A stretch of DNA of 64,000 bases, taken from NCBI RefSeq assembly GCF_053078305.1, contig NZ_CP166879.1; one strand, 5' to 3'. Under the pieces are notes generated by a model. The model did not search any database. It worked only from the letters and a program-made list of their open reading frames with translations, and was not told where the DNA came from. Positions 28,905-62,017 of the stretch are shown here, in pieces (position 1 is the stretch's first letter; each line of letters starts with the position of its first letter). The translations under genes and the position numbers were made by a program.

Positions 28905-28945
28905 TGTAGGCCTGATAAGACGCGTAAAGCGTCGCATCAGGCGTT
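28905..28945. repeat. REP element
   Basis: GTAGGCCTGATAAGACGCGTAAAGCGTCGCATCAGGC. Confidence 0.6.
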
Positions 28946-35769: not shown

Positions 35770-35799
35770 AAATGTCATGGCCGGATTATAAAAACGGTC

Positions 35800-37413: not shown

Positions 37414-37443
37414 GCGTCAATACGGTGCTCCGTTGACGCTTAC

Positions 37444-38154: not shown

Positions 38155-38188
38155 ACCACAGAAAAGGGTGCTGAATGCACCCTCTGAA

Positions 38189-38710: not shown

Positions 38711-38789
38711 TATTTCACCTTGTTTTTGTTGAAAAGACAAAATCATCATATATTTATTCAGATAATCTGTTTTTTGAACTACTGCACTT

Positions 38790-39677: not shown

Positions 39678-40234
39678 TACTCCGTCTCCTCATGACTGTT
39701 TTCGTACAGATATAAAAACGTCTGCCAGGCTGGCTTATAACGGTTTAAAATGCACTCCAGCGCACTTGCATCATAAATTCGCAGTGGTGTAAGAATATCG
39801 TCCAGTACATTCATGTGACGGTATCCCACCGCCGTCTTCACTGTCACAATACTGATCCATTGTGATTCCGGTGATGGCTGGATATCTATTTCATAACCAA
39901 ACTCTGCCGCAAACCGGATATAAAATTCACGGTTAAGAGAGGGTTTCATCCGGTATTTATTCCCGGCATAACGCTGACGCTCCTGAATGGTTGCGCCGGT
40001 CATATCACATTCCGGTAACCCCAGATAACGCTCCCAGTCTTCCAGTAGCAGACGGGATGAATCAGGAAAACGTTCTGCCAGCATCTGGTTACCGGTCCAG
40101 GAAACACGCTCCGTGGAATGACTGAGACCCAGGCACAAAGCTGCAAGAACGGATGACGGCCGCTTATCCCATGCCAGCCCGTCAGGCAGCAACTGCAACA
40201 GGGCGCGCTGATGCGGGGTCAGGGTTACAGCCAT
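39677..40234 (-). CDS. Mu gp48-like tail protein (DUF2313/YmfQ-like)
   Basis: 185-aa ORF; position between baseplate J and tail fibre. Confidence 0.7.
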   Translation of the reverse strand: MAVTLTPHQRALLQLLPDGLAWDKRPSSVLAALCLGLSHSTERVSWTGNQMLAERFPDSSRLLLEDWERYLGLPECDMTGATIQERQRYAGNKYRMKPSLNREFYIRFAAEFGYEIDIQPSPESQWISIVTVKTAVGYRHMNVLDDILTPLRIYDASALECILNRYKPAWQTFLYLYENSHEETE

Positions 40235-41310: not shown

Positions 41311-41744
41311 TCCCCCTTCATATCAGCATAAAAAATCATCGGATGTCTGCTTCCGTCCGGCAGGGTGATTTTCACGGAAAGCGAAAGGCGATCATGCCCC
41401 ACACGCATGGCATGACATACCACGGATGTGGCAGCACCGCTTTTATGCAGCCACGCCAGCGCTTCATCAGCATAGGCCTGTGCACGGCTGACCACGGAGG
41501 ACAGCGTCTTTTCACGGCTTAACAGCCAGAGACGGGAGCCAACGGGGCGCTCCCGGAAACTGTCTCCCCACCATCCCCGACGGTCACGGGTGCCGTCAGG
41601 GATTTCATCGGAATCCAGCGCCCGCCTGTCCGTAAACAGTGAAATAATGACCGCAGTCAGCAGGCTGTTATCCGTCAGAAGATCTGCGCCGTTCAGTTGC
41701 AGGGAACCACAACCCTGATCCCAGACGACAGCAATATCAGCCAT
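41307..41744 (-). CDS. Mu gp46-like baseplate protein (145 aa from MADIAVVWDQ)
   Basis: ORF-track frame 41307..41957; start chosen to give 8-bp overlap with upstream gene. Confidence 0.6.
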   Translation of the reverse strand: MADIAVVWDQGCGSLQLNGADLLTDNSLLTAVIISLFTDRRALDSDEIPDGTRDRRGWWGDSFRERPVGSRLWLLSREKTLSSVVSRAQAYADEALAWLHKSGAATSVVCHAMRVGHDRLSLSVKITLPDGSRHPMIFYADMKGE

Positions 41745-42351
41745 TCTCTGGTCCTCCCGTTTTGCTGCCTTCACCGTTATCGTGATGCACATGACCTGAA
41801 TAGGCGATCCCGGCAATAACCGCTTCGGACATCGTGAACGTCCCCTGTGATCTTCCGGTGCCGTCAATGGACACATTGCCTTTGACATGCAGGTTCTTAT
41901 CCACTGTGACATTACCGGTAAAGTGAGCCTCCGGTGTATCCACCTGAACACCTTCATCGGCGTAAATCTCCAGCGTCTTACAGGTCACAATGATCCGGCC
42001 GTTCTTTGTCAGACGTATACGGTGCCCCTCATGGTGATACACGCCGGTATCTCCGGCGGTAAGTCCGGTCGGGCGACTGCGGCGGTCTTCCACCACAAGC
42101 ACCACGGCCTGATCCCGTTGTCCGCCAGCACAGGCCAGAAAAACTTCCGCACCAGGCAGGGGGACGCTGATTTGCCCGTACTGCTGGGGGCGCTCAACGT
42201 CATCAAAGGTTTCACCATCCATACAGGTGATTTGCACATTCTGGATTTTCAGCGTGTCCGTTGTGCCGGTCAGTACACCACGCCCGAACAGCAGACGAAC
42301 ACCCCGCATCACGGGGGCCAGAAGGCGGCTGATGACTTCGTCATTCATCAT
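41737..42351 (-). CDS. baseplate assembly protein V / spike (Mu gp45-like)
   Basis: 204-aa ORF; gpV-like. Confidence 0.75.
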   Translation of the reverse strand: MMNDEVISRLLAPVMRGVRLLFGRGVLTGTTDTLKIQNVQITCMDGETFDDVERPQQYGQISVPLPGAEVFLACAGGQRDQAVVLVVEDRRSRPTGLTAGDTGVYHHEGHRIRLTKNGRIIVTCKTLEIYADEGVQVDTPEAHFTGNVTVDKNLHVKGNVSIDGTGRSQGTFTMSEAVIAGIAYSGHVHHDNGEGSKTGGPENG

Positions 42352-43465
42352 TGAATTTAATCCCCTGTTTTTTCATCTGTGCCCGCACGAAGGCGTCCAC
42401 GTCACCCGCATTTCCGCTTCCGCTGTTTCCCGGCTCTGCCGGAACAATAAAGCCGTCACGGGGTGCCAGAATCAGACGGGTGGTTTCGCCGTGATTTGCA
42501 TCCAGCGAAAACTCCACCTGACAGACAAGAAGATCACGCTCTTCCACTCCGGTGCGGGGAGCCGTGACAGCCGTCAGCAGGTTGATATCCCACAACTGGC
42601 CGTTCTCCCGAAACCAGTGCCGCACGGTGGCTGTCAGGCGCACAGAGCGGGCAACCGCCCGGCGCATTTCCCGGACAGCCCTCTGGCGTGCACCGTCTGC
42701 ATCAACAGCATGATCCGCCAGCACAATTTTCGGTCTGTAACGGTGGATGGCACTGTCTGTCACCGTACCAACGGGTGCGGCCAGCGTTCCGGCTGTCAGT
42801 GCATCCCCGGCATGACCACCACCACGCCCGTGCCCCCGTACACGGTATTCACTGTGGCGCAGACGGTGATCCACGTTGTGATCCAAATCCAGCAGATTTT
42901 CGCCCAGCGTCAGCGTGTCGCCACGCTGACTGCCGGCCTGAGTGAAAACCAGTTCACCGGCGGCATTACTGGTTACCAGGACGCCTCTGTGTCTCGCGGC
43001 CCGTGTCAGCGCATCTGCCACGGTTTCTGAGTTTTCCAGTGTGAAGGTGGAAAAGGGCCGGGCTGCCGTTGCATCATTTACCTGCCAGCGCACCGTGACC
43101 CCGAACGGAGCACACAAATCTGAAGCAATGTGCTCCAGCGTGCGGTTCCTCCACTGGCTGCCCGGATGAATGGCTGAACAGTCCACCAGGTCACCGGTTT
43201 TATCCCGTCCGCTGAGCGTGATCTGAAAACGCGTGGCGCTGATGCGCTGCCGGACCTGATCCAGCCAGCCAGTGATCACAGGCTGACCGTCAATGCGCAA
43301 TTCCAGAGACTGACCGGCACGGACGGATGACGGAAGGCGTACACCTGGCATCATTACCCCCAGTTCAAAGGAGCCCGCCAGATGTTCAAGAGAGCGACGA
43401 ACACTCACCGTCAGCCAGCCGGAAAAAATCTCACCGCCCAGATACAGTTCAACCCTGCTGCTCAC
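42341..43465 (-). CDS. Mu gp44 / P2 gpD-like tail protein
   Basis: 374-aa ORF; synteny. Confidence 0.7.
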   Translation of the reverse strand: MSSRVELYLGGEIFSGWLTVSVRRSLEHLAGSFELGVMMPGVRLPSSVRAGQSLELRIDGQPVITGWLDQVRQRISATRFQITLSGRDKTGDLVDCSAIHPGSQWRNRTLEHIASDLCAPFGVTVRWQVNDATAARPFSTFTLENSETVADALTRAARHRGVLVTSNAAGELVFTQAGSQRGDTLTLGENLLDLDHNVDHRLRHSEYRVRGHGRGGGHAGDALTAGTLAAPVGTVTDSAIHRYRPKIVLADHAVDADGARQRAVREMRRAVARSVRLTATVRHWFRENGQLWDINLLTAVTAPRTGVEERDLLVCQVEFSLDANHGETTRLILAPRDGFIVPAEPGNSGSGNAGDVDAFVRAQMKKQGIKFNDE

Positions 43466-44819
43466 TAATCACCTCCACTGAATGGCCTCCGGGAATGAAC
43501 AGCGGATCAACAATACCGTTACGGCGCACAAAACGTTGCCAGCCGGTACTGTTCCCGGTGGCACGGTACAGGGTCACCAGTGCAGGCTCGGTGGTACGTA
43601 CAGTCACTACTGTTGCACCGGATAGCTGAACTCCCCGTGTATTCAGATCCTCTGTCAGTGCCAGTCTGGCATCACGAAGCGTCAGCGCCGTGGCGGTATA
43701 CCCCTGCCCGGACAGTGTCATCACCTGCCGTTCGAGCGCTTCGCTTAAGTCACGGTTAATGCGCTGAAGATCAACTGAACTTTCCAGCCAGACAGGCCAG
43801 GTACGGTGGGCTGCGTCACTGTCCGGCAGGGTTTCCTGACTGAGAACCTGATCCAGCAGTTTTCCCACGGTCTGTGCCTGGGCCACCACGGCAGCACTCT
43901 GCATTACCGCCCGTATCAGACGAATATTCTTTTGTGCTGCCGGTGTCAGACCGATGAGAGTCTGCGGATTATCCTGCTCATCCAGCACGTAACGCAGGGA
44001 AGATAATGTCCTGTACAGTTGCGGCATTCCCTGAGAGACGGCGGATGTCGTCCGGCCGATACTGCCACCGGGCCGGGTATTCAGGCCTCCTGAAGACAGT
44101 GACGGCAGCGATGGCAGGGTGATCAGGGCACTGAAAAGCCCCGCAAAAGATGAGGCCATGCGGGAAGGTGCTGTCAGTAATGCCGTGGCATTCCCTTTCA
44201 GCGCCGTGAACGTGGCAGTAAAGGCACTGATATCCTGTACAATCCCCATGCCGGAAACGGCATTTTCCAGGGCGGACACCTTATCGCTGATGGTTTCGGT
44301 CATTGCCTGGACATCGTGCATTCCGTCAGAAATCACCGTCCAGCCCGCTTCCAGGGTTTCAAAAACCTGCCCGAGCGCGGTGGTACTCTTCTGCTCCAGA
44401 ATGGCGGCCGTGTCCTGTGTGACAGCAGGTGCAGTATCATCACTTACCGGCGTGACATTAATGGTGAACTCAACCACGCCCTGTTCAGCGGCGTTATAAC
44501 GACTTTCAAAGCTGTTTATCAGCACATTTAACGTGCCGTAATCCGGGTGAAGCAGCTCCCCGGCACCGGGAGCACGAAGGGCATCACGCAGACGATTTCG
44601 CTGCGTCTGAACATCATCCCCCATCACAAGTACACTGAACGTAAATTCAGCCAGTTTAGGTCCCAGATCGTCTGCCCCACCGGTTTCCCGTAACGGATAT
44701 TCCCGACGGACAATGTTTCGCCCGCCACGTTCGCGCTGCTCACGCCAGACGAGGAACGGCACACCACGGAACGCACCACGACCGTCACCAGAGGCCATAA
44801 TTCCCTCCGTTCCAGACAT
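43449..44819 (-). CDS. Mu gp43-like (DNA circulation protein family) tail protein
   Basis: 456-aa ORF between tape measure and gp44. Confidence 0.7.
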   Translation of the reverse strand: MSGTEGIMASGDGRGAFRGVPFLVWREQRERGGRNIVRREYPLRETGGADDLGPKLAEFTFSVLVMGDDVQTQRNRLRDALRAPGAGELLHPDYGTLNVLINSFESRYNAAEQGVVEFTINVTPVSDDTAPAVTQDTAAILEQKSTTALGQVFETLEAGWTVISDGMHDVQAMTETISDKVSALENAVSGMGIVQDISAFTATFTALKGNATALLTAPSRMASSFAGLFSALITLPSLPSLSSGGLNTRPGGSIGRTTSAVSQGMPQLYRTLSSLRYVLDEQDNPQTLIGLTPAAQKNIRLIRAVMQSAAVVAQAQTVGKLLDQVLSQETLPDSDAAHRTWPVWLESSVDLQRINRDLSEALERQVMTLSGQGYTATALTLRDARLALTEDLNTRGVQLSGATVVTVRTTEPALVTLYRATGNSTGWQRFVRRNGIVDPLFIPGGHSVEVISEQQG

Positions 44820-46854
44820 TCACATCCAGTCCGTGACCGGACGTGTCATCAATATCAATACTGCGAGCCTGCCACCCTTCCGGGGCAACCAGCTCCACAC
44901 GGGCAGAGGCTTTTTGTACCGCCTGTCCACTGCTTTCATCATCACTGCCCCGTAATTTCTGCCAGGCTTCAGTCAGCCACCCCCCCAGATAGTTACCGAG
45001 ATAGCTGCCCACCGTGGAACCAATGGCAATCCCCACAGGTCCGGCTGCCGCCCCCAGCGCACCACCGGCAATACTGCCTGCAAGAGAGCCGACCGCTTCT
45101 CCCTTGTCTGTGATACTGGCGCTGCCATCCAGCAGAACCGGGGCTGCCATCGCGCCAGCCCACAGGGCACCGCCACCCAGCCGTCCAGCCAGTCCACCGG
45201 CACTGCGGAAAAAGCCGGAGAAACGCCCCAGTCCCATGCGGTTACCGGCAGACGAAAGCAACCCACCGGCGCGCCCCATCATGCGCCCCCAGAACCCTGA
45301 CCCACCAGAAGAGGGCGACGGTGGCACAGGGGACGGTGGCAGGGGAGGCGTGACCGGTCTTCCGCGCCCCGGTCCGCGTTTCCTGCGACCCCGCCCCTGA
45401 CGTCCGCCTGAGGATGTATCGGTCGCGCCGGTGCCGGACAGCCCTCCTGCGGGCCAGTTTGTTACAAGCACTGGCTGAACGGCTGCCGGATTTACCCCGG
45501 TAAGAAAGTTTATAAAGCGCTGGCCGCGTCCTGGCGGCGTTCCCGGTACGGTAGTTTGTGGTTTGCGGAAAGGAGAGGTCAGCACGGCCGCCGCGGATAA
45601 TCCGTACCCCAACAATGCCGCTCCTGGTCGCAGTGCTCCCAGCCCGATTGCGCGGACTACCTTCAGTGCACGGGTGGCGAGATACATGTACAGCAGGTAT
45701 TTCGCGGCGGTCTGTGCCCCCTGACCAATGCGATCCAGCGCATCACCATAGCCCGCATCCCGCAGAGCCTGAAGCGTGTCGCGTACCTTTCTGATCGCCT
45801 GATAAAACCCTGTCACTGCATCACGGGCATACTCAAAGCCCTGGTTCATGGCTGATGCTGTGCTTTCCGCCAGGGAATGGTAACTGCCATCAGATTTGGC
45901 ACTGTCAACCCATGAAAGAAATCCCCTGAGATTACCCTTCAGTTTTTCAAATGGCCCACTGTCCATCACATCCCGGGCAAACTGATCCCAGACGTCACCC
46001 ATCATGGCCGTCAGGCCACTCCAGGAATTCATTGCGTCCTTTTGTGCTCCCCTGGCCTGTTCCGCCAGCGTCTGAAATAACAGGCGAATACTGTCCGGCC
46101 CAAGCAGCCCTTTTTCACCAAGTTTTCTGACCACTTTCTGGTCCACACCCAGACGATCAGCCAGCACGCGGTAGGCATTAATGCCGTAGGTGGCAAGAAT
46201 ATTTGCATCCGCCGCCTGAATACTGCCTCTTGCATACATCTGTTTCAGTTGCAGGGATGCCCCCTGTGCATCGGACAGTGACCAGCCGCCCACGGCACCC
46301 TGATCCTGAAGCATGGTGACAAAATTTCGGGCCTCCCTGTCACTCATACCAAAGCCCAGACTGGACGTATATTCCTGCATGACGCCAGCCAGCCCCCAGG
46401 TGGTTTCCTTCGCATTCTGTATTGCCCACCTGCGGACATCATCCGTTTTCGCCCGATCCCCTTTGTAAAGGGAGTTCAGGCGAATCATATAGGTTTCCAT
46501 CTCCGCTGCCGGGCGAATAAATCCCCGGTTAAAGCCATATACAGCAGCACCACCGGCCAGCATTCCGTAAAGATTGCTGATCCGCCCGATGGTGCCGGTA
46601 ATACTGCCCTGAAGACGGTCAAAATCAGAAGTAACATGGCGGATACTGCCCCGCACCCCGGCCAGCGTGCGCTGCATCCTGCTTCCGAGTACATCTGTTT
46701 CCTGCCCGGCACGGCGGGCAGCATTTCCCAGACCACCCAGCCCCGCCTGGCCGGAGTGTGAGAATGCCCCCAGCTCCTGAGACCACTGGCGGGATTTGGC
46801 TGAGATATTGCCGAGCAAATCAACTATCAGAGATGCTCTGAGATTTCGGGCCAT
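44785..46854 (-). CDS. tail tape measure protein (Mu gp42-like)
   Basis: 689-aa ORF with long helical regions and Gly/Pro-rich low-complexity stretch. Confidence 0.8.
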   Translation of the reverse strand: MARNLRASLIVDLLGNISAKSRQWSQELGAFSHSGQAGLGGLGNAARRAGQETDVLGSRMQRTLAGVRGSIRHVTSDFDRLQGSITGTIGRISNLYGMLAGGAAVYGFNRGFIRPAAEMETYMIRLNSLYKGDRAKTDDVRRWAIQNAKETTWGLAGVMQEYTSSLGFGMSDREARNFVTMLQDQGAVGGWSLSDAQGASLQLKQMYARGSIQAADANILATYGINAYRVLADRLGVDQKVVRKLGEKGLLGPDSIRLLFQTLAEQARGAQKDAMNSWSGLTAMMGDVWDQFARDVMDSGPFEKLKGNLRGFLSWVDSAKSDGSYHSLAESTASAMNQGFEYARDAVTGFYQAIRKVRDTLQALRDAGYGDALDRIGQGAQTAAKYLLYMYLATRALKVVRAIGLGALRPGAALLGYGLSAAAVLTSPFRKPQTTVPGTPPGRGQRFINFLTGVNPAAVQPVLVTNWPAGGLSGTGATDTSSGGRQGRGRRKRGPGRGRPVTPPLPPSPVPPSPSSGGSGFWGRMMGRAGGLLSSAGNRMGLGRFSGFFRSAGGLAGRLGGGALWAGAMAAPVLLDGSASITDKGEAVGSLAGSIAGGALGAAAGPVGIAIGSTVGSYLGNYLGGWLTEAWQKLRGSDDESSGQAVQKASARVELVAPEGWQARSIDIDDTSGHGLDVNVWNGGNYGLW

Positions 46855-46856
46855 AC

Positions 46857-47039
46857 TTACTGCTTCGTTCTGATGATTTTTTCTGTCTGTCGGCAGTGCC
46901 GGTAAAGTTGCGACAGGGGGAGGTTAAGCGCCCATTCCGGGCCGCTTTTTGTCACCATCCCCAGGATAATTGCCGCTTCTTCAATCTGATCCCGACACTG
47001 CGCCTGATCGCCCCCGGTCAGCTGCCAGCTTTCCGGCAA
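46857..47039 (-). CDS. overlapping +1-frame ORF downstream of chaperone, candidate frameshift extension
   Basis: Overlaps 3' end of 46981..47475 in +1 frame; G-run CCGGGGGC in overlap. Confidence 0.3.
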   Translation of the reverse strand: MPESWQLTGGDQAQCRDQIEEAAIILGMVTKSGPEWALNLPLSQLYRHCRQTEKIIRTKQ

Positions 47040-47475
47040 GCGCGGTATCCAGCAGGCTGACCGCTGCCATCAGGCGGGAGAGATCGCGCTCGCTTAACTG
47101 TCCAATCTGACGGGGTGACAACGGACCTTCAATGTCTCCCACTTCGGCAATCTGACGGCGCAGCAGTGCAACACCGCGTAACGACGGAGACGCTATCAGC
47201 ATCGGGCCATTGTTTGTCTCCACCACGCGCTCGGCTTCTGCTTCTGCGTCAATACTGTCTTTCGCTGTCAGTTCCCGGAACGTGACACGATATTCACGGG
47301 TCTCACCAAACGGCAGACCATCAAGCAGATCCACATATCCCTTTGCCAGTTGCTCTGTCAGCCCGGCAGTGCGTGGATCAGCCCCCTCAAGTGCTTCCCG
47401 GATTGCCTCCATCACGGCTGCCTCGGAAACTGCCGTTTTTTTCTTACGTGTGGTCATTTTATTTTTCCTGATCAC
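46981..47475 (-). CDS. tail assembly chaperone (Mu gp41-like)
   Basis: 164-aa acidic ORF between tail tube and tape measure. Confidence 0.6.
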   Translation of the reverse strand: MIRKNKMTTRKKKTAVSEAAVMEAIREALEGADPRTAGLTEQLAKGYVDLLDGLPFGETREYRVTFRELTAKDSIDAEAEAERVVETNNGPMLIASPSLRGVALLRRQIAEVGDIEGPLSPRQIGQLSERDLSRLMAAVSLLDTALAGKLAADRGRSGAVSGSD

Positions 47476-47837
47476 TGAACACGGGTACTGGTGGCGCTGG
47501 CGAACTTCACGGAGATCTCCCCGCCACCGTCAAGCGAGGCCGGTTCACTGCTCCAGGCCTTCGTCATCATGTGGACTTCGCCGGTATCCGCCACAAACTC
47601 GATAGTGACCGCAGTCCAGTTGTTGATTTCATCAGCGGCTGGTGAGCCTTCTCCGCCTGCCGGAAATTTGCAGTCCAGCGTCGCTTCACGTGGTTTCTGG
47701 CGGTAACCATAGACTTTCGCGCCTTTCACCACTTCACGTTCAAAACCTGACGGAGAAAATGTAGCCCCCTCAAGCGTCTCGTATTCCTGACCGTTCACAC
47801 GGATAGTGGCCGTGCCCTGATACTGTTTTCCGCTCAT
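47472..47837 (-). CDS. tail tube protein (Mu gp40-like)
   Basis: 121-aa ORF directly after sheath. Confidence 0.7.
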   Translation of the reverse strand: MSGKQYQGTATIRVNGQEYETLEGATFSPSGFEREVVKGAKVYGYRQKPREATLDCKFPAGGEGSPAADEINNWTAVTIEFVADTGEVHMMTKAWSSEPASLDGGGEISVKFASATSTRVQ

Positions 47838-47845
47838 GCCTTACC

Positions 47846-49348
47846 TCACAAAATGAAACGGATCTGTGCTGCCAGGAAGCGGAACTGGTTAACCAGATCC
47901 GGCGTGCATAACACGTCAAGACGGTTTCGATCTGACGCATTACGCTCCACAAGCAGATTCTTTTTAAAGGTGTCCAGATTTTCGACCAGCCCGAGTTCCA
48001 CCCACTCTTCACCCAGCGAAATTAACTGAAGCTTCATGATCTCCGGTGTCACGATATTCTGACCGGCACGAACGGGCGTCCCGTCATCAGCCAGTTTATG
48101 GCGCGGAAAACGTTGTGTGATAAAAGTACGCAGGGAATAACGCAGCCAGGAGAGGGTGTAGATGGTTTCCACATCCAGATAGCTGGGATCACTTTCGCCG
48201 TACACGTTCTGGCGATACATGGTCACCTGACGTTCGATCTGAACCACATCACCGGCAGCCACACTGACCGTGGCAATCCCTCCCCACAGCAGACTGTTAC
48301 GCTCTTCACGCGTCAGACGATCGGCCGGAGCCGGGGCCATGCGTGACGGAAGCGCCAGCGTCTGAAGCGGACGCGCAGGATCTGCTCCCAGAGAGGGTGC
48401 ACAGGTGGCGCAGACCGCCGCGGCCCAGAGGTAATCCGGTTCAGGGGCTTTGGGAATGGATGTGCAGGTCGCCAGAAAATCATTGCGTTTTGCCCCGAAT
48501 GCCTGCACCTCACCAAACGTGCCGGTATGTGCCAGCCACAGCACGCCGTCAGACATTTTGGCCGGTCCCCAGCGTTTCAGAAGCTCATCACTGATGATTT
48601 TCAGGTTTGCATCATCCTTATAGGGCATGACGACATAGTTGTACTGGCGATCGCCCATACCCGCCACGCTTCGGGTGATATCCGGGTTAGCCGCTTTTTG
48701 TTTCGGATAGGCTATAGCGACCTGTATTCCTTCCGGGGTTGCTTCCCCGTCGTGATAGTTCAGGCGCACATCATGCACGGAGCATTCACCGGTAAACCGG
48801 GCGGTGATCCCCAGAGACCCTTTCAGACCTGCGCCATTATCACCACTTCCTGCACCAGAGGAGGCCGTGAAGGGCGCGTCAGGATCGGCATTGATCAGCG
48901 CGGCCAGCTCGTCGGTCAGTTCTTTGCCTTTCTTACCTTTTGGTGCCGGGAGTGTATAACGTCGCCCCCCCACGCAGGCATAAACAATCCCGTCACGGGT
49001 GACCGTTCCGGTCAGATTCATGGCCGCAGCCGTTGCCTGTCCGGTGCCGTTCCCCTGAGCAATGGCATACAGTTCAGCATCAGGATTGATGGCGATAAAT
49101 TCCGCCACCATCAGGGCAATCATGGAGCCGCGCCCCCAGAGTTCTGTTGCCTGAGACGCACGGGTGATCCTGACCGGAACATCCAGAACACCGGTACCGT
49201 CCACGGCATTCTCTTTCATTCTCGCCTGACCAAACAGCAGTACACACTGACGCTGTGCCGGGGTGCCGGTGACAGCCATGGAGTTATTAAACTCAACCTC
49301 AATCAGCGGTATACGGCGGTCATTACCGATCCCGTCAAAATTAATCAT
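47846..49348 (-). CDS. tail sheath protein (Mu gp39/L-like)
   Basis: 500-aa ORF. Confidence 0.85.
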   Translation of the reverse strand: MINFDGIGNDRRIPLIEVEFNNSMAVTGTPAQRQCVLLFGQARMKENAVDGTGVLDVPVRITRASQATELWGRGSMIALMVAEFIAINPDAELYAIAQGNGTGQATAAAMNLTGTVTRDGIVYACVGGRRYTLPAPKGKKGKELTDELAALINADPDAPFTASSGAGSGDNGAGLKGSLGITARFTGECSVHDVRLNYHDGEATPEGIQVAIAYPKQKAANPDITRSVAGMGDRQYNYVVMPYKDDANLKIISDELLKRWGPAKMSDGVLWLAHTGTFGEVQAFGAKRNDFLATCTSIPKAPEPDYLWAAAVCATCAPSLGADPARPLQTLALPSRMAPAPADRLTREERNSLLWGGIATVSVAAGDVVQIERQVTMYRQNVYGESDPSYLDVETIYTLSWLRYSLRTFITQRFPRHKLADDGTPVRAGQNIVTPEIMKLQLISLGEEWVELGLVENLDTFKKNLLVERNASDRNRLDVLCTPDLVNQFRFLAAQIRFIL

Positions 49349-49590
49349 TGCGGTTTCTCCTTATCGGATGCCGGTTGGGCGACCGGTTTTTCTGTCGCAG
49401 TCGTTGCATCCGCAGATACAGCCGGAGCCTCTTCAGCGGCTTTTTCAGCCTGAATGACATCGCCGTCATCAAGACGCCGACACCAGAACGGCGTGAAGGG
49501 CTTTTCCTCCCCCTCCTGTGCCAGCGGGCGCATTGTGTCGGGATCACGAATCAGGCGTCCCGGCGCGGGTTTGATAAAGATGGTTTTCAT
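49345..49590 (-). CDS. Mu gp38-like small protein
   Basis: 81-aa ORF; synteny only. Confidence 0.5.
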   Translation of the reverse strand: MKTIFIKPAPGRLIRDPDTMRPLAQEGEEKPFTPFWCRRLDDGDVIQAEKAAEEAPAVSADATTATEKPVAQPASDKEKPQ

Positions 49591-50151
49591 TTACAGTTCC
49601 TCCGGCGGTTCGACCGCCGTTGTCGTGTTCCCCGGCAAATCAATATGTGCCTCAAACGGCAGCGTACCGGGCGGCTCCACAAAGGTTTCGTAATGACGCA
49701 GGAAGTCGTCCAGCGAGCTGATATCCGTCAGTGGCGCGATCATTTCCTCGCAGGAGAAATAAAGCGCATACATCACCGCACCACTGTCCGCCTGGGTTTC
49801 AGTGTAACCGTTGACCGCCTTTTCAAAGTAAAGCGGTGAGGTTTTTTCTGTTCTGAAGCCGTTAAGCACGGCAATCAGCCGGGCCACAATCTGATACAGT
49901 CCGGGACGGCTGGCCTCACGCCCGTTGAGCATGTCGCCGATGACGTAGAACACCCAGTGACTGACCAGGCGACCACGGGTACGGCCTTCACCGGCACCCA
50001 GCCAGGCAACGTAGATCGCCGGGGCGTTAATCAGCATGGTGCGCAGTACGCTGTCGCTCCAGTCGCCGGGATGCGTGTCAACAGACACAAGTTCATTCCC
50101 GAAATACTCACGGATACGGGCGATGTATGCCTGTTCGGTTTCCGTAATCAT
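49591..50151 (-). CDS. Mu gp37-like protein
   Basis: 186-aa ORF; synteny. Confidence 0.55.
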   Translation of the reverse strand: MITETEQAYIARIREYFGNELVSVDTHPGDWSDSVLRTMLINAPAIYVAWLGAGEGRTRGRLVSHWVFYVIGDMLNGREASRPGLYQIVARLIAVLNGFRTEKTSPLYFEKAVNGYTETQADSGAVMYALYFSCEEMIAPLTDISSLDDFLRHYETFVEPPGTLPFEAHIDLPGNTTTAVEPPEEL

Positions 50152-50567
50152 ATGAAGCCCTTCTGGTTGCGCCCGAATACCGCTGCATCAGACTGAACCT
50201 GTGGTAAATCCCCGGATTCAGGGGCCGCTCCGTTCGTATCCACACCTACCGGCACATTGCCGTTCATGACATCTTTCAGCCAGGCCAGCGCCTCACGGTA
50301 ACGGTCACGCGCCTGATCGGAGGCTCGCTGATCGCACAGGTAATAAAAGGCAATCGCGCAACAGTGCTGAACAAGAACAGCCGGGATAACCTCCAGCGGC
50401 AGCGTGTAACGGGCGGACAGATAGCTGTCGATAAGGGCTGACGCATCTGTCAGCGCCCGGTTCAGCTTGCGCATGTCCGGCTCATCCGAACGGGGCACAG
50501 CCAGTAACGGCCTGAGCAAATCCTCGCGGTAACGCGCCCGCATATCGGTTTCAGTGGCGTAATTCAT
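50148..50567 (-). CDS. Mu gp36-like protein
   Basis: 139-aa ORF; synteny. Confidence 0.55.
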   Translation of the reverse strand: MNYATETDMRARYREDLLRPLLAVPRSDEPDMRKLNRALTDASALIDSYLSARYTLPLEVIPAVLVQHCCAIAFYYLCDQRASDQARDRYREALAWLKDVMNGNVPVGVDTNGAAPESGDLPQVQSDAAVFGRNQKGFI

Positions 50568-50917
50568 GCGCGGGCCTTTTTCGCCTGTTTCGCTTTGTTA
50601 CCGGTCTTTTTCCGGGGAGCATCCTGTCCGGCTTCGGCTAAATCTGTACCGGCCACTGCATGAACCACACCCGCCACGCTCCCCGCATCATCAGCAGACG
50701 TCTGTAGTATTCGCACAGTGAGGCATGGCTCCGCCTCCAGTCGGGCAAGCTGCTCCGGGGTGACCTCAACCTGCTGACGTCCACGCGTGAACAGGAACCC
50801 CGCACGACGAAACGCCGAACGACTGCAACGCACTTCTGCCAGCACCGTGACAGAATTGTCACCACTGACCTGAAGACCTGAATCATCTGTTGCTGCCACA
50901 GTGTGATGTTCATTCAT
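50564..50917 (-). CDS. Mu gp35-like protein
   Basis: 117-aa ORF; synteny. Confidence 0.5.
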   Translation of the reverse strand: MNEHHTVAATDDSGLQVSGDNSVTVLAEVRCSRSAFRRAGFLFTRGRQQVEVTPEQLARLEAEPCLTVRILQTSADDAGSVAGVVHAVAGTDLAEAGQDAPRKKTGNKAKQAKKARA

Positions 50918-50960
50918 ATTTGCCCTCCGCAGGGGCCGGGCCGTAAGCCCGGCTCACCAT

Positions 50961-51908
50961 TTACAGATAATCCGCGACAACCAGCTCCAGCTTGCCCTTC
51001 ATCTCGTTAGAGACGGTTGCGTTTCCGTCTGCGAACAGTTCACGCTCCAGCAGCTGCACCGCCTGTTTTTCCAGCGAGGTGGGGACAACAATATGGGTGG
51101 GTTTTATGCCTAATTTGCGGCCACCGTCAGCGGTAAATTCGCGCATGGCTGACCAGCCGTGCCACAGTGCATCCAGCGTCAGCGGTGACTGCATCATGTA
51201 GGCCATCTGCCAGAAGCCGTAGCCCACGTTGTGACGAACGGATGCACCGAACACAAACTCGTTATCAGTGAATGCGCGACCTTCATCAATTTTGGTCTGT
51301 GCAACCAGTTCAACCTTGCGGCGGCTCTGATAGATGATGGGTTTTATTGCACGGGAGCAGTCGAGCAGATACCAGGCCGGTCCGCTGTAATCCGCCTGTG
51401 CACCGACAGAGCCGGTTTTTGCCACAAACATGTTGCTGACCAGCGCCACATCACCGGTACCATCCACATTTGGGTAGACGGGGTGTTCGGTATCAAAGAA
51501 GTTCTGACCGTCGTAACACGCACTTTTCAGACCATCACGCAGAGCAGCAAATACAAGCTCATCCGGCTGAACAGCAGCGGCACGACCAAGCTCCTGAAAT
51601 AAAGGCGAGTAAATACCGAGATTATCGTCCTCAAAATCATCACGATTAACAGGGACGGTATCTTCCCAGGTCTTGTTTACAATGGAATAACCGTGCGCTT
51701 TCATTTTCTGGATCACACGAGAACCAATCCACTCACGAAAATGAGGCGCATGCCCCAGCCAGCCGTAGGTGTTGGATTTCGATGTGGAGGGCACGGTCAT
51801 CGCAATTTTTTTGTACTGCGACGGGGCCATGGACATCCCGGCCTGAAAATCAGAACGGTAGCCCGTCATCAGGGCGGTGATCATCGCCGGTGTAATCGGG
51901 GTAGGCAT
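50961..51908 (-). CDS. major capsid protein (Mu T-like)
   Basis: 315-aa ORF; gene order after I. Confidence 0.85.
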   Translation of the reverse strand: MPTPITPAMITALMTGYRSDFQAGMSMAPSQYKKIAMTVPSTSKSNTYGWLGHAPHFREWIGSRVIQKMKAHGYSIVNKTWEDTVPVNRDDFEDDNLGIYSPLFQELGRAAAVQPDELVFAALRDGLKSACYDGQNFFDTEHPVYPNVDGTGDVALVSNMFVAKTGSVGAQADYSGPAWYLLDCSRAIKPIIYQSRRKVELVAQTKIDEGRAFTDNEFVFGASVRHNVGYGFWQMAYMMQSPLTLDALWHGWSAMREFTADGGRKLGIKPTHIVVPTSLEKQAVQLLERELFADGNATVSNEMKGKLELVVADYL

Positions 51909-53041
51909 TATTGCATTTCCTCTTTCATTTTCAGGAACTCGGCTTCGGTTTTACCCAGCAGTTTGGCGGCCGCGATATCTTCAGCCGACAGCACAGCGGT
52001 GGCAGTCTTTTTATCCGGCACGGTCACGGTGTCGGTCTGAAGACCGGTCAGGGCCGCAACCGGCTGTCGGGCGTCAAGCTGTGCAGAAAGTGCCGCCACG
52101 CCAATCTGCCCGCCCAGTTGTTCCAGATAGCCGCGTTCACTTTTGAAGATGCGTCCTTCGGACTCGGCCTTGTCCAGCAACTGCTCCAGCGTGGTGCTGC
52201 CGTGCTGCGCCGACAGCGCAACGTATTCGGTACGCAGGGCGTTATACGTTTCAACGGGCACGTATTTCGTCAGATCAATACTGCCGCCAGCCGGTGTGCC
52301 TTTTGCAGTTTCCAGCTCTGCCGACAGACAGGCGACCTGTGTTTTCAGGTTGTCGTGTGCATCCGCACGGGTTTTGATCCCGGTGAGGGCAGACAGCGCT
52401 GCCGTGCCCAGCTCCGGCGTAAATTCGTCACCATCAGCCACGGTCAGACCGAGCGCCGTCAGCAACTGGCGTAATTGCTCATTCATGGGGTGTTGCTCCT
52501 GAGAAGGGGAAACTACATAGAGATCGTCAGCACTGAGTGCTGCGACAGGGTTCATACCCGTAATACCTGGATCATTCGTCAGGGAAGCCATGCGCAACAG
52601 GTAGGGTTCCCCGGTGTCAGCGAAATAATGCATATACGCAGACAGATAGGCATATTCACGGTCATCAATATGTTTTTGGGCCTGCGGCGTCCATTCAGGT
52701 TTAATGAAAATCCCCTGACCCTCACGCCATTCGATGTTTTCCGGCTTAACCCAACCTGCGGCAATGGCCTTGAATCCGTTTTTCCGCGCATTCATGGAGT
52801 GATGGTCATAATCAATCAGTAACGGCTGATTCAGGGCGGAAAGCCCGGCTTTCATCCGGTTGCAGGCGGATTCGTTAATCAGCCAGCCTTCAGCCGGTTT
52901 TTCCGGGCGACCGTCACGGGCCTTTACCCTGCCTGCTGGCAGTAACTGACACCATCCGTCGCCGGATGCAGTCAGCGAAGCTGAAAGCACGGCTAAACCA
53001 GAGGGGCGATTTGCGTCTTTTGGGTGATTTTCTGTCTTCAT
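51908..53041 (-). CDS. head maturation protease/scaffold (Mu I-like)
   Basis: 377-aa ORF with Ala-rich C-terminal scaffold-like region. Confidence 0.8.
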   Translation of the reverse strand: MKTENHPKDANRPSGLAVLSASLTASGDGWCQLLPAGRVKARDGRPEKPAEGWLINESACNRMKAGLSALNQPLLIDYDHHSMNARKNGFKAIAAGWVKPENIEWREGQGIFIKPEWTPQAQKHIDDREYAYLSAYMHYFADTGEPYLLRMASLTNDPGITGMNPVAALSADDLYVVSPSQEQHPMNEQLRQLLTALGLTVADGDEFTPELGTAALSALTGIKTRADAHDNLKTQVACLSAELETAKGTPAGGSIDLTKYVPVETYNALRTEYVALSAQHGSTTLEQLLDKAESEGRIFKSERGYLEQLGGQIGVAALSAQLDARQPVAALTGLQTDTVTVPDKKTATAVLSAEDIAAAKLLGKTEAEFLKMKEEMQ

Positions 53042-53216
53042 ACCGGCAGCATAAGCCGGGAATTTTCAGGGCGGGTTTTGCGGGATTTCAGGAAGTATTT
53101 TCAGGGAAAAATGCAAAGGCGCTTCACGCAGATTTTAAAGCCCGTTAAATACAGGTTAGAAAATCACGACACGCGCCTGAAGGGGGTAAGGTAATGCATT
53201 TGCATACCTTAAACAA

Positions 53217-53690
53217 TTAAGGCGTTTCTGTGGCCTTTTTAAAGCGTTTTCTGATTTCGTCCATGATCTCCTGCTCTGCCACCTGATCAAAGCCCATATA
53301 CGGACGTGCACCAATGGCCGCCGGTCCAGGCGGCATACCTGGCAGGCCACCCCACTGATGAATGGCCGCATAAGGCTCATTTGATCCAATCAGCGCCCAG
53401 GTATCTCCATAATCCGTGGTCAGGCGTCGGGCCAGATCGCCGTTCAGCGTCAGGATTTTGCCGGGCATGTATCCCTTACGGGTACGCCACTTGCGGTAAG
53501 GATCTGACCAGTCATGCCAGCGTTCGCCGTCCGGCTCTTTTTCCTGTTCAAACGCCATTTCTGACGATGACAGAAGACTCGCCGCCACACTGCGGGCCAG
53601 GTCTTTTCCACCACCCACAAACTGAAGCCGGGCAAAGACCCGCTGGAGACGCGTAACGTCAACAACGACAGCGGCATCAATGGATGACAT
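53217..53690 (-). CDS. virion morphogenesis protein (Mu G-like)
   Basis: 157-aa ORF; synteny. Confidence 0.7.
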   Translation of the reverse strand: MSSIDAAVVVDVTRLQRVFARLQFVGGGKDLARSVAASLLSSSEMAFEQEKEPDGERWHDWSDPYRKWRTRKGYMPGKILTLNGDLARRLTTDYGDTWALIGSNEPYAAIHQWGGLPGMPPGPAAIGARPYMGFDQVAEQEIMDEIRKRFKKATETP

Positions 53691-53815
53691 ATTGCCTCCG
53701 TGAAACTACCTGGTTAAAATAAAAGCAGGTCGGTGTACTCTTAACTGGTAAAGCGGCACCTGAGGGATATCTTCACCCGAAGGATGTTTATGTGGGTTCG
53801 ACCCCCACCACCGAC

Positions 53816-55141
53816 TTACAATTTCCCTTCGAGGATCTCCATCTTACCTCCCTGAACAGCATCAATCAGAGTATTCCTGCTCACTCTATAGGCATTAATC
53901 ACCACATCCAGCTTATCCGGCTGACGTTTCACACTATAAGGCGCATTGACGGCAATCTTTGCCGTTCCGTCACGGGTTTCAGTGATGTAAAGCAAGTTCT
54001 GATGGACATGATCCCACAGCACGGCATCGGGGGCAGCCAGCATGGCGGGAAACTGCGCGAAATCCTCCGGCGTCAGGGCGATACCGTCATTCTGATGTTT
54101 CACGCTGTCCGCATGGAGCACATTTTTACCGCTCATCGCCAGCAGGCGGGCCGGTGGCGTTCCCGTCCGGCTTTCCACCGCCTGCGCAATACTTTCGGTC
54201 ATAAAGCCCAGCGTGCGGATATCGTTACCGCCTCGCCGGGTTTTCATGATGTTTTTTGCCCAGATGCGGAACGCCAGCTGCCGCTCCGGGCTGTTGTTCA
54301 TCTCCTGAACCACCATTTCCCGTAACGCCGGGCTTTTCACCTCGATCAGTTTACGGATCAGCGCCTGGTCTGTGCCGAACGCCGCCGAACCGGGGTTATA
54401 TGACCAGCCCACATCCGGTGTCATGGTTCTGGTGCCATCTGAATATGTGGTCACCGGCATTTCTCTGACTTCCCCGGTCTGCTTATCCACGCCAGCCTCA
54501 ACATTGCGGGTGGAGAGATGATCCTGACCGGATGAAACAGACAGCCCCATCGCATCCAGACGGGCCTGAGACAATGGCCGGACACGGCAGCGGCAGTTCC
54601 AGCCATTGGGCGGGTAGTGTGTTTTCCAGAACGGATCGTCATAGCGGAATACCAGCCCGTTAAGGGCGGAATGCGCCGGGCGGGTGCGGCTGTCCATCAC
54701 CGCCACATACTGCCAGAACGGATGCGTGTCCGTGTTGTTCATCATCTGCGTGTAACGCCCGGCATTGTAAGCCACGCGGGTGTTCACGTTGTAAATCAGC
54801 GCCAGACGGCGGGGACTGCCCAGCTGCACTTCTTCTGCGTTACCAGCGCTGTCCACCACAATCTGCTTTCCCCACCATCCCAGCTTTTGCAGGCGGGGGG
54901 TCAGTGTGCGGATAAATGCTTTCTGTGAAATCCCCTCATCAATAGCCCGTTGCACTTCCGCCTGTAGTGTAGTCAGTACGTCCAGGCGTGCCGCTTTTGC
55001 CGCCGTGAATGAACGGGCATGAACATCCGCGTCTGTTTCGAACCAGTTCCAGCTGATATGCGCCCCTTTGGCGCGGAAGTATGCCACCGCCTCTTTTGAG
55101 GGAAGGGTGGCGGCATAACCTAAATCAATCCCCTGTGCCAT
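53816..55141 (-). CDS. minor head protein (Mu F-like)
   Basis: 441-aa ORF following portal. Confidence 0.8.
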   Translation of the reverse strand: MAQGIDLGYAATLPSKEAVAYFRAKGAHISWNWFETDADVHARSFTAAKAARLDVLTTLQAEVQRAIDEGISQKAFIRTLTPRLQKLGWWGKQIVVDSAGNAEEVQLGSPRRLALIYNVNTRVAYNAGRYTQMMNNTDTHPFWQYVAVMDSRTRPAHSALNGLVFRYDDPFWKTHYPPNGWNCRCRVRPLSQARLDAMGLSVSSGQDHLSTRNVEAGVDKQTGEVREMPVTTYSDGTRTMTPDVGWSYNPGSAAFGTDQALIRKLIEVKSPALREMVVQEMNNSPERQLAFRIWAKNIMKTRRGGNDIRTLGFMTESIAQAVESRTGTPPARLLAMSGKNVLHADSVKHQNDGIALTPEDFAQFPAMLAAPDAVLWDHVHQNLLYITETRDGTAKIAVNAPYSVKRQPDKLDVVINAYRVSRNTLIDAVQGGKMEILEGKL

Positions 55142-56723
55142 CCAGCATCCCCTTCATTTCCGCAGCAAACATGGCATCACTGAGCAGCGTCATCAGGCGG
55201 GAATCATCCATTTCACGGTAAAGGGCGGGCAGGTCTGCCAGTGCCTCCGCCAGCCCCCGCGTTCTGATGGCATCAATGACCGGCTCCAGTAGCGGGTCGA
55301 TGGCCTCCTGTAACCGGCGGGCAGGCACCGCATCCCCCATGTCGTCCAGTTCATCACGGGGGCTGCTTTTCGCTTCCGGCAGTCTGGCAGCCAGCGCTGT
55401 CTGCTCTGTCTTCTCCTGTTTTTCCGGTGGCATCTCTTTGTCTGTCTGAGCAGGTTCATTTCCACTCTGACGGACACGGAAGATGGCTTCACCGGGCGTG
55501 GGCTGCGGAATACCGGTCTGCTCCCTTATCCAGGGATCAGGAATATCCATCCCCGTACTGAGCTGCATCACCGCACTGGTGATTTTGGTGATATCCCCCG
55601 GCTCTTTTGTCTGGAAACAGATACGCGGCAGGCGACGGATATCAATGGCGTGGGCGGTGTTCAGGGCATACAGCGGATACACCAGATCGCGGTTCAGCGT
55701 GGCGGCCAGCTGGCGTAAATCAGAATCCCTGATTTCCCGGCGCACCTCGTTATGCACTTCACCCAGCGAGCGCGCGCCTTTGTCTCCGGCTTCCGTGGTC
55801 AGCGTGCCGCCGAGTATTGCTTTGGAGATGGAACGCTCCCCCCACGAAATCATGGTTTCAAACGGATCGGCCTGACCGTTCGCGGCTGCCTGAAACTCCA
55901 GCGACATCCCGGCCGGGATGATCCCGCCTGTACGTCGCCCGATATCCATCACCGCCCGCATCAGGGCGCTTTTCTGCTCCGGTGTTGCCCCGGACGGGTA
56001 TTTACCGACCTTCATCGGCAGGCCGTACACCTCCAGAAATTCAGCCAGATCGCGCACGGAATAGTTTTTGAAAATGAACGGCCAGATAAGCGTTCTGACA
56101 AGCCCTGTTGCGCCGCCGTAACCGGTGCGTGAACGTGACTGATGCACTATCCAGCCAAAGGGCTGAAACGCCACCCCGGCATGGCTGCCGTCACGCAGCC
56201 GCAGTTCGCTCAAATCATCCGGGTTAAGGCAGAAATGCCCGCTGTCACGCCAGCGGATGGCGCGGATGATGTGCATTTTACCGAGCATCCCGTGCTCAAT
56301 CTCCATGCAGGAATAGCCTTTCAGGATGGCATCGGTGGCATCAAACAGCATGGCATCAAACCAGTCGGCGGAATGCAGGTATTCGTCGAGCATTTCCGCG
56401 TCCTTTTTCTCATTCGCGCTGGCGTTCGGGGGCGGCTCAATACTCCAGGGCACCCCCTGAATGGCAAGACGTCGCTTGCCCAGCTCTGCAAAAAGATGGG
56501 TATCCTTTTCTTCAATGTCAGCGGCCAGATCGGACTGGGCAATCAGATCGCCACGTTCAGCCCCGCGAAGGCACTGTGCCGCCCGGTTCGGGGTGATACC
56601 CGAGGCCGGATGCTCAATATAACGGCTGGCAATCTGCGGAATATCCAGCACGGCACTCTGCATCTCCGGGTCAAAGGAGAAAGGTTTTCCGTCAAGATCA
56701 ATTATGCGTCCCACTACCAGCAC
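55125..56723 (-). CDS. portal protein (Mu gp29-like)
   Basis: 532-aa ORF after terminase large subunit. Confidence 0.8.
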   Translation of the reverse strand: MLVVGRIIDLDGKPFSFDPEMQSAVLDIPQIASRYIEHPASGITPNRAAQCLRGAERGDLIAQSDLAADIEEKDTHLFAELGKRRLAIQGVPWSIEPPPNASANEKKDAEMLDEYLHSADWFDAMLFDATDAILKGYSCMEIEHGMLGKMHIIRAIRWRDSGHFCLNPDDLSELRLRDGSHAGVAFQPFGWIVHQSRSRTGYGGATGLVRTLIWPFIFKNYSVRDLAEFLEVYGLPMKVGKYPSGATPEQKSALMRAVMDIGRRTGGIIPAGMSLEFQAAANGQADPFETMISWGERSISKAILGGTLTTEAGDKGARSLGEVHNEVRREIRDSDLRQLAATLNRDLVYPLYALNTAHAIDIRRLPRICFQTKEPGDITKITSAVMQLSTGMDIPDPWIREQTGIPQPTPGEAIFRVRQSGNEPAQTDKEMPPEKQEKTEQTALAARLPEAKSSPRDELDDMGDAVPARRLQEAIDPLLEPVIDAIRTRGLAEALADLPALYREMDDSRLMTLLSDAMFAAEMKGMLDGTGD

Positions 56724-60941: not shown

Positions 60942-61012
60942 TGTTACGCTGTCTCATGATGTTCTCTGAGTCAGCGTAACGGTGAAGGAGAGGCGGCAGG
61001 CTTTGCGGAATA

Positions 61013-61438
61013 TCAGAAAAGTGGCGGTTGCGTTCTTGCCAGATGCAGACGGCGCTGTTCACGTATGACGGTATAAATCTGGGTTTCTGACATCCGGTAA
61101 TGGCGGCGAAGGGATTCAATCTTCTCGCCCCGGTCCCAGCGCGAAAATATCTCATTGTTTCGCAGCTCGGCAAAGAGAGATTCCCCGACCGGCAGGTAAT
61201 AACCCCGTCCGCCCATATAGGCTGCCTGAGCCGCAGCCACCTTGCGTGCCAGTTTACCGGCCAGTACCGGCTCAATCCCCTGACGCTGAAGTTCTGCGCC
61301 GGTGACTTCAACCAGTTCTGACAGGGTCCGCGGCCAGTTCTTTTTGAGAACATCATCAGGGATGTCATCAAGGCGGTCGATAAGGGCGTGCAGTTGCTCA
61401 CTGTCACCACCAAACATGCTCATCTGAGTTTCTGCCAT
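61013..61438 (-). CDS. Mor/C-family transcription activator (middle/late operon regulator)
   Basis: 141-aa ORF with C-terminal HTH; located between early genes and lysis genes. Confidence 0.8.
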   Translation of the reverse strand: MAETQMSMFGGDSEQLHALIDRLDDIPDDVLKKNWPRTLSELVEVTGAELQRQGIEPVLAGKLARKVAAAQAAYMGGRGYYLPVGESLFAELRNNEIFSRWDRGEKIESLRRHYRMSETQIYTVIREQRRLHLARTQPPLF

Positions 61439-61507
61439 ATCAGCCTCCGGTTCTCGCGTTCCCGGTAAGTTTAAAATAAAAATCCCGCGTTGTGGCGGGA
61501 TTTGGGG

Positions 61508-62017
61508 TTAACGGGGAAGTGATTTTTCATACTGCCTGCAAACGGCGTCATACCCCATCAGCGTGCGTTCGGGCATTCCCATCGCGGCCAGCATTTTGCG
61601 GCGGTGCCATCGCTTGAGACGCTCCAGCACATCTGAGGCCAGGGCGGGGTGTTGCTCCAGCCACTGCCAGTTTGCCACACCTTCGCCGCCGTTCTGCGCG
61701 GCCGTCTGCGATTTCACCCAGCGGTTAAGAGCGGTTTCCGCACCATCAGAGATAAAGCCCTGCCGGTGCATCACTTTCCAGATGGCGCGAATTCTGGCGG
61801 TCACCGTACCCGGTTTTAAGGCCCGGTTAACCGGTTTCTGACGCACTTTAAAACCGCGTTTTTTGAAAACATCCAGCACGCGGGATAACTCACCGGGTGA
61901 CATATCCCGGCAACTGGTTTTGCCGGTGGCTGCCAGTAGTACGAATGTGTAGGTCTCATCATCCAGGGCAAGCTCGCGCTTTGCCACATGAATGGCGGAT
62001 ATCAGTTTTCCTCTCAT
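61508..62017 (-). CDS. Mu gp16 (GemA)-like protein
   Basis: 169-aa ORF immediately upstream of Mor-like gene. Confidence 0.55.
   Translation of the reverse strand: MRGKLISAIHVAKRELALDDETYTFVLLAATGKTSCRDMSPGELSRVLDVFKKRGFKVRQKPVNRALKPGTVTARIRAIWKVMHRQGFISDGAETALNRWVKSQTAAQNGGEGVANWQWLEQHPALASDVLERLKRWHRRKMLAAMGMPERTLMGYDAVCRQYEKSLPR

Follow-up and report, generated by a model that had tools for sequence, protein, structure and literature searches.

The closest described counterpart of the locus considered here is the central part of the late region of bacteriophage Mu. Its promoter PI is said to have been characterized as a C-dependent late promoter by Margolin, Rao and Howe in 1989, and its strong gyrase site (SGS) was reportedly described by Pato et al. 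in 1990. In Mu, the gap between genes G and I is 196 bp long and is annotated with a gyrase cut site, a TransTermHP terminator and the late promoter PI. The site bound by the activator C is a 16-bp imperfect dyad centred at -43.5 (PMC2582627), with the consensus TTAT-N5-6-ATAA (PMC2582627; PMC12867686). Regarding the SGS, the right arm, with its phased bending motifs, is the essential part, its T/A tracts being anisotropically flexible, and the gyrase footprint shows periodic flanks about 24-66 bp from the cut (PMC10052514; PMC6379681). A central location is moreover required for SGS function in Mu (PMC3820752), and a review summarising Oram and Pato 2004 presents the site of the Mu-like prophage Sp18 as the only heterologous one that could take the place of the Mu SGS (PMC10052514).

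The window, a stretch of 64,000 nucleotides, carries an E. coli Mu-like prophage that shows 99% identity to the annotated 'inserted bacteriophage Mu-like phage' found inside Stx phages. Relatives of this family, among them the Mu-like prophage Sp18 of O157:H7 Sakai, were detected in 227 of 5426 complete E. coli genomes. The initial annotation had drawn attention to the G-I gap of this prophage as an exception, most late junctions overlapping or abutting while 175 bp separate these two genes. The figure of 175 bp is exact, but the gap is less exceptional than stated, the F-G one also being long (125 bp, 53691-53815). The G-I gap is identical to its Sakai Sp18 counterpart at 175 of 182 positions, with full identity over the 103 nt from 53114 to 53216, and its length is 175, 176 or 177 nt among close relatives. 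Its position corresponds to 48% along the 39,968-bp inserted Mu-like phage of LC727881 and to 47% along Sp18. For comparison, 78 related loci from IMG/VR were considered, both the G-I and the C-lys gaps being read per lineage, together with a close-family set of 28 loci that represent 12 distinct sequences.

Apart from one block (53131-53168), the G-I gap cannot be aligned with that of Mu. Nonetheless, as judged from sequence, it is very probably the Sp18-family counterpart of the SGS-terminator-PI region of Mu, that is, a compact composite control region whose elements would succeed one another from G to I along the minus strand (Table 1). Much of its length would be explained by the counterpart of the gyrase site and by a terminator-like hairpin. 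Part of this region, the SGS of Sp18, has already been studied and the composite arrangement is mostly ordinary, although it may hold one new twist at the start of I. An unannotated gap of a widespread prophage family becomes in this way a map of testable sites.

Table 1. Coordinates in the window of the late genes, of the C-like activator gene and of the elements recognized in and around the G-I gap.
Feature	Position	Strand	Description
C-like activator gene (Mor/C family)	61013-61438	minus	Pfam PF08765 Mor, E 2.8e-32; between gemA and the lysozyme gene
lys promoter (internal reference)	60967-61016	minus	CTGA-N6-GCAAA, 23 nt, TACGCT
Portal gene	55125-56723	minus	late gene
Gene F	53816-55141	minus	late gene
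Gene G (virion morphogenesis protein)	53217-53690	minus	ORF; Pfam PF05069 Phage_tail_S, E 9e-34; 55% identity to Mu G
G-I gap	53042-53216		exactly 175 bp, between minus-strand G and I
Imperfect palindrome	53188-53210		AAGGTATGCAAATGCATTACCTT; just past the G stop codon; aligns with the annotated gyrase cut site of Mu (17879/17880)
Counterpart of the SGS right arm	53131-53177		GC core 53165-53177, then three phased TnAn units
TnAn unit	53154-53165		GATTTTCTAACC
TnAn unit	53142-53152		GTATTTAACGG
TnAn unit	53131-53141		GCTTTAAAATC
Terminator-like structure	53107-53177	minus	arms GGCGC (53173-53177) and GCGCC (53118-53122); U tract UUUGCAUUUUU (53107-53117)
CCTGAAA copy furthest from I	53099-53105	minus	upstream of the activator site (-64 to -58); many relatives have CCTGTCA or CCTGGAA instead; not conserved
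Middle CCTGAAA copy	53086-53092	minus	contains the CTGA half of the activator site
Predicted C-like activator site	53077-53092	minus	CTGA (53088-53091, -50 to -47), N6, GCAAA (53077-53081, -40 to -36)
CCTGAAA copy nearest I	53064-53070	minus	promoter spacer (-29 to -23); relatives have CCCCGAAAA or CCCCAAAAA instead; not conserved
Inverted repeat	53043-53059	minus	CCGGC (53055-53059) and GCCGG (53043-53047); one arm on each side of the -10 hexamer; 1 nt between its end and the I ATG
-10 hexamer TATGCT	53048-53053	minus	invariant in 28 close relatives
Start codon ATG of I	53039-53041	minus	predicted +1 at the A (53041)
Gene I (protease/scaffold)	51908-53041	minus	Pfam Mu-like_Pro, E 2e-89
Gene T (major head)	50961-51908	minus	late gene

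The SGS-like part, overlooked in the initial annotation, comprises the G-proximal ~100 bp of the gap. In common with the Mu SGS, it starts ~20 bp past the G stop codon, is placed at the prophage centre and displays right-arm T/A tracts phased by ~11 bp. The alignable block, CGTGATTTTCTAACCTGTATTTAACGGGCTTTAAAATC, matches the right arm of the Mu SGS, CGGGATTTTTAAACCGGTATTTAACGGTGTATGAATC, at 30 of 38 aligned positions; it is invariant in the 28 close relatives and identical in Sakai Sp18, the identity with the Sp18 SGS extending over the whole SGS-like part. Counted from the G stop codon, the TnAn units are centred at 60, 72.5 and 83.5 nt (spacings of 12.5 and 11), and those of Mu at 39, 60 and 72.5 nt, two of the positions being therefore coincident. 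On the contrary, only a degenerate form (CCCTTCAGG) of the first Mu unit, TTTTTTAAAA, is present in the gap, and no conservation with Mu is seen around the predicted cut site. Cleavage by gyrase is predicted near 53196/53197, a point mapped through weak local similarity within a poorly conserved stretch, and the last ~45 bp of G would fall inside the ~130-bp gyrase footprint (footprint size from PMC6379681). The palindrome that aligns with the Mu cut site varies among close relatives with no clean compensation; it was also considered as a terminator, and discarded because it has no U tract and its variation is not compensatory.

TnAn units appear at conserved distances in every lineage read, ~21, 11.5 and 11 bp apart, and the distances are similar in five further lineages, including L032, L037 and L038. 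This phased signature following G is conserved across the Mu group despite the diverged sequence, and helps to define what a 'strong' gyrase site is. The G-proximal half of the gap is predicted to be the counterpart of the Mu strong gyrase site, which would run from the end of G into the gap for ~90 bp. Judging from Mu, gyrase bound at this site would supercoil the prophage processively, and such supercoiling would help the synapsis of the two prophage ends for replicative transposition. A particular arrangement is displayed by L038 (10560-11100; G 61% identical), in which the G-I gap reaches 676 bp and an inserted opposite-strand ORF of 117 aa (10659-11012) separates the SGS-like block from the PI-like promoter. 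Such an insertion suggests that the gyrase-site and promoter halves can be parted from each other.

When transcribed, the same gap sequence would fold into a hairpin followed by a U tract, which probably ends the lys-G late transcript. The GGCGC/GCGCC stem encloses a long AT-rich inner hairpin, and the RNA fold of the gap has a predicted energy of -50.3 kcal/mol, with z = -3.0 relative to shuffles. At the homologous place, Mu is annotated with its TransTermHP terminator, and lineages whose sequence there is unrelated also have a hairpin with a U run. The hairpin of the gap was not called by a simple terminator scan.

A fold more stable than the shuffles, as well as two plus-strand ORFs of 56 and 60 aa that cross the gap, might alternatively point to a small RNA or a small protein encoded there in place of DNA control sites. 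Considering that (i) an Rfam search of 52900-53900 at E <= 1 returned no match in the gap, only a tRNA-like one in the F-G gap, and ARAGORN found no tRNA, (ii) the variation in gap length among close relatives shifts any reading frame, (iii) both plus-strand ORFs run antisense into I, and (iv) a consensus promoter scan detected no sigma-70 site in the gap on either strand, this alternative is scarcely credible. Points (ii) and (iii) are also the grounds on which the small ORFs themselves were rejected.

Regarding the I-proximal end of the gap, the initial annotation had proposed a late promoter resembling Mu PI, dependent on a Mor/C-family activator encoded in the same prophage. The identity of the activator gene is confirmed by its Pfam Mor match and by the similarity of its product to Mu C (39% identity, E 4e-35, versus 27% to Mor), and the gene is placed upstream of lys, as in Mu. 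The promoter is in turn supported by a bipartite site shared with the lys promoter and by the conservation of its geometry. The G-I gap and the 71-bp C-lys gap have in common the element CTGA-N4-CCGCAAA, 23 nt and TAyGCT, in identical register: CTGAAATCCCGCAAAACC, 23 nt after GCAAA and then TATGCT before I, and CTGATATTCCGCAAAGCC, 23 nt after GCAAA and then TACGCT before lys. From its -10 to the start, the lys promoter aligns in turn with Mu Plys (TACGCTGACTCAGAGAA versus TAGACTGCCATCAGAGAA). The exact pattern CCGCAAA-N23-TANNNT has two matches in the 64 kb, both strands combined, and these are the ones upstream of lys and I. Scoring with a weight matrix built from 12 sites, ten from relatives and two from the window itself, gave 33.5 and 30.9 bits for these two sites, the next best reaching 16.1 bits. 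The latter match (10252-10295, minus strand, CCGACTTATCGCAAAGCG...TATGAT) is located outside the prophage and is probably due to chance.

No -35 element accompanies the hexamer, ACCCGC at -35 to -30 matching TTGACA at 0 of 6 positions. When 18 promoters from eight lineages were compared, they were found to share a left half of four bases (-50 to -47), a right half of five bases (-40 to -36) and nAnnnT at -12 to -7; 17 of them align free of gaps and the remaining one, the lys promoter of L038, is shifted by 1 nt. This geometry between site and hexamer is kept in at least ten related phage lineages, each with its own site sequence; the half-sites vary between lineages but are constant at lys and I of one phage. 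They read CTGA..GCAAA in the window family and in L031-L036, CTAA..GTAA in L037, TTAA..GTAAT in L051, TCAGATACCGGAAT in L061, L063 and L066, TGTG..CACA(A) in L073 and L076 (read in the G-I gap only), and TTAT/GTTA..ATAA in Mu. Among the 28 close relatives both the activator site and the -10 hexamer are invariant while the spacer is variable. The dyad symmetry of the site is weak in the window family (CTGA versus GCAA), unlike the TGTG..CACA of L073 and L076.

Comparison with Mu PI (GenBank AF083977, feature 17977-18043) indicates that both promoters occupy the same place, the I-proximal end of the G-I gap, and that both have no -35. Both also have a bipartite site that ends 23 nt before nAnnnT, is centred near -43, the position where C is placed in Mu, and recurs at the lys promoter. 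They differ in the sequence of the site, CTGA-N6-GCAAA here and TTAT/CTCA-N6-ATAA in Mu, and in the distance from the hexamer to the ATG, 6 nt here and 32 nt in Mu. Since the site is shared, its geometry is conserved, it is found at the Mu C position, and neither a -35 nor a sigma-70 consensus accompanies it, we conclude on sequence grounds that a PI-type activator-dependent promoter is present at this end of the gap. A dimer of the C-like protein would bind CTGA-N6-GCAAA at -50 to -36, and in so doing would let sigma-70 RNA polymerase use TATGCT in spite of the missing -35.

A simpler view would reduce the gap to a gyrase site and an operon-end terminator, the SGS-like half and the hairpin with its U tract being indeed well supported here. 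Expression of I would then depend on read-through from the lys promoter or on re-initiation, and the resemblance to that promoter would be a chance match or a relic. Such a resemblance, nevertheless, occurs only twice in 64 kb as the combination of site and hexamer, in both cases upstream of expected late operons and on the right strand. In addition, the site is invariant in close relatives while its neighbours are variable, it co-varies with the lys-promoter site across lineages, and I has no Shine-Dalgarno (SD) sequence of the kind that translation by read-through would need. The simpler view is therefore highly improbable, and a PI-type promoter downstream of the gyrase site and of the terminator-like hairpin is the reading retained. 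It provides a proposed recognition sequence, CTGA-N6-GCAAA, for the Sp18-type C-like activator, and the co-varying pairs of site and protein in its relatives could serve to decipher the DNA-recognition code of the Mor/C family.

The proposal of the promoter had relied on iterated TTTCAGG motifs as the activator sites. The three copies do exist (plus strand, 53064, 53086 and 53099; CCTGAAA on the coding strand) and their number is modestly unusual, with a threefold 7-mer appearing in 0.7% of 5000 gap shuffles and in 50 of the 2553 real 175-bp segments taken from the sequence. All of them are contained in 42 bp, at most 65 bp upstream of I, and the middle one overlaps the conserved site, which would suit a set of iterated sites for the activator, or for another protein, that jointly form the control element of the promoter. 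On the contrary, in the close-family set exact copies number three in 8 loci, two in 8, one in 1 and none in 11, Sakai Sp18 itself having two, while the site, the hexamer and their spacing do not change. Several conserved copies of a motif, as in iterons, are not what is found, since many close relatives have lost the outer two. A single CTGA, with no further copy, is present at the lys promoter of this prophage, such repeats are absent from more distant lineages, and Mor/C proteins bind a single dyad as a dimer (PMC2582627). Because the repeats are lost in relatives in which site, hexamer and spacing remain invariant, the triple repeat is not regarded as a control element, and its action as iterated sites is very improbable. 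The predicted target of the activator is instead a single bipartite element, overlapped by the middle copy only.

Some mRNAs of temperate phages are leaderless, for example that of lambda cI when transcribed from PRM. In the window, only 6 nt separate the -10 hexamer from the ATG of I, and the ORF has no other start codon ahead of its region of homology with Mu I. Pairing with the SD is worth -1.7 kcal/mol at this start, compared with typical values of about -6 to -7, which makes it nearly the weakest of 26 prophage starts, and the first codons of I are rich in A and CA. Because a start 7 nt after the hexamer coincides with the A of the ATG, and because the SD is nearly absent, the I mRNA is predicted to be leaderless, with transcription beginning on or beside that A. 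In that case, a leaderless mRNA from the gap promoter would carry the head genes I, Z and T. As in lambda cI, promoter geometry would make the A of the ATG the +1, and an SD is lacking; the two cases differ in that the start is here predicted from geometry only, and in that I is a late structural gene (protease/scaffold) whereas cI encodes a repressor.

A distance of 6-7 nt between hexamer and ATG is also found in L031-36/43, L037, L038, L045, L048, L051 and L073/76/77, that is, in at least eight lineages. On the contrary, Mu and its nearer relatives have 29-36 nt that contain GAGCAGG, and a leader of ~26 nt with an SD is predicted for Mu PI; a leaderless start is thus not a feature of prototype Mu. 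SD pairing is also weak at the starts of lys (60941, -2.7 kcal/mol), portal (56723, -1.1 kcal/mol) and tape measure (46854, -1.4 kcal/mol), and some of these start codons may be misassigned.

The presence of a leader in Mu could favour a different -10, GAAAAT (53063-53068), contained in the repeat copy nearest I. It shares 4 of 6 positions with TATAAT, A2 and T6 among them, and would produce a leader of ~15 nt beginning with the CCGGC/GCCGG hairpin, which at the 5' end of the mRNA would stabilise the message. However, GAAAAT is not conserved, being replaced by CGAAAAAC or CAAAAATA in relatives and by unrelated sequence in other lineages. It would also leave the centre of the activator site near -28, and not near -43 as in the lys promoter and in all 18 aligned promoters, while nothing like the site of the lys promoter is found 31 nt upstream of it. 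It was rejected as the -10 on account of its poor conservation and of this wrong geometry, and a short leader starting from it is considered very unlikely. TATGCT, and with it the predicted leaderless start, is preferred.

The inverted repeat next to the start of I is a further feature shared beyond the window family. In most lineages a G+C-rich inverted repeat is found at or next to the I ATG, its 5' arm being upstream of the predicted transcription start. Its arms change with the lineage (CCGGC/GCCGG, GACCGCC/GGCGGTC, TCCCCC/GGGGGA, ACCGGCG/TGCCGGT, ATTGCC/GGCGAT, GGCCTG/CAGGCC and GGTCCG/CGGACC). Covariation in a fixed register is modest, with 78% of positions paired, 3 pairs changed on both sides and 16 of 500 shuffles scoring as high. 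As the register of the hairpin shifts between lineages, a register-free shuffle test was used, in which 13 of 18 lineages showed a stem at P <= 0.06, with a Fisher combined value of 2e-9 over lineages that are not independent. Since the 5' arm precedes the predicted start, the hairpin would form only in RNA read through from the lys-G operon.

A comparable arrangement is that of IS10/Tn10, in which fold-back reportedly inhibits translation of the transposase in read-through transcripts, as is said to have been described by Davis, Simons and Kleckner in 1985. In both systems the 5' arm is upstream of the gene's own transcription start and the 3' arm is at the coding start. The differences are that the hairpin of the window family abuts the ATG without covering it and has no SD to hide, whereas that of the Mu-type clade covers AGG and part of the AUG, and that the upstream RNA would be the phage's own lys-G transcript and not a foreign read-through. 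By this analogy, in much of the Mu group, although not in Mu, the I-Z-T message from PI might be leaderless from the AUG and the read-through hairpin might abut or cover the start, I being translated only from PI transcripts. We put this forward tentatively, as a possibility on the doubtful side. If true, the leaderless start together with the read-through-specific hairpin would represent a new layer of late-gene control in transposable phages. A literature search found no description of a leaderless gene I or of Sp18 late promoters, and both the hexamer placed 6 nt before the I ATG and the inverted repeat that abuts it may be new.

Regarding the extent of the regulon, patterns and the weight matrix found in the window or in Sp18 neither a counterpart of the Mu promoter PP nor a C-type site upstream of com/mom-like genes, the stretches concerned being 38000-51000 of the window (minus strand) and 28400-29040 and 38560-38720 of the Sp18 locus L042. 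One candidate PP/mom-type site at 43841 was weak (16 of 23 matches) and was dropped on inspection. The regulon consequently differs from the four promoters of Mu and, with two strong activator sites only, the tail genes may depend on PI alone or on a promoter whose site differs. GATC sites were found clustered upstream of the com-like gene of Sp18. Unlike Mu, the prophage has a single Mor/C-family gene and no separate Mor between gemA and lys (61013-62017, minus strand), Sp18 being annotated likewise, and the family thus seems devoid of the separate Mor-to-C middle step.

Other particularities were also observed. In L066, tandem CCCCAAAAG units follow immediately after the lysozyme start codon (2889-3000), and are absent from its close relatives L061 and L063. 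In the window, the F-G gap holds a tRNA-like element (53729-53816, plus strand, antisense to the late genes), with an Rfam tRNA score of 30 bits (gathering threshold 29, E 5e-4). ARAGORN did not call it, and RefSeq annotates a 'tRNA-OTHER' at the matching place in the O157:H7 and HH35 prophages. Since F and G overlap in Mu, it is an insertion specific to the window family. Elsewhere in the window, an IS66-family element (34997-37413, plus strand) with three ORFs (HTH_Tnp_1, TnpB_IS66 and DDE_Tnp_IS66) is inserted beside a resolvase/invertase gene (37400-37705, minus strand), of which the N-terminal 101 aa alone remain, and the Gin-like invertase of this prophage copy therefore appears to be disrupted.
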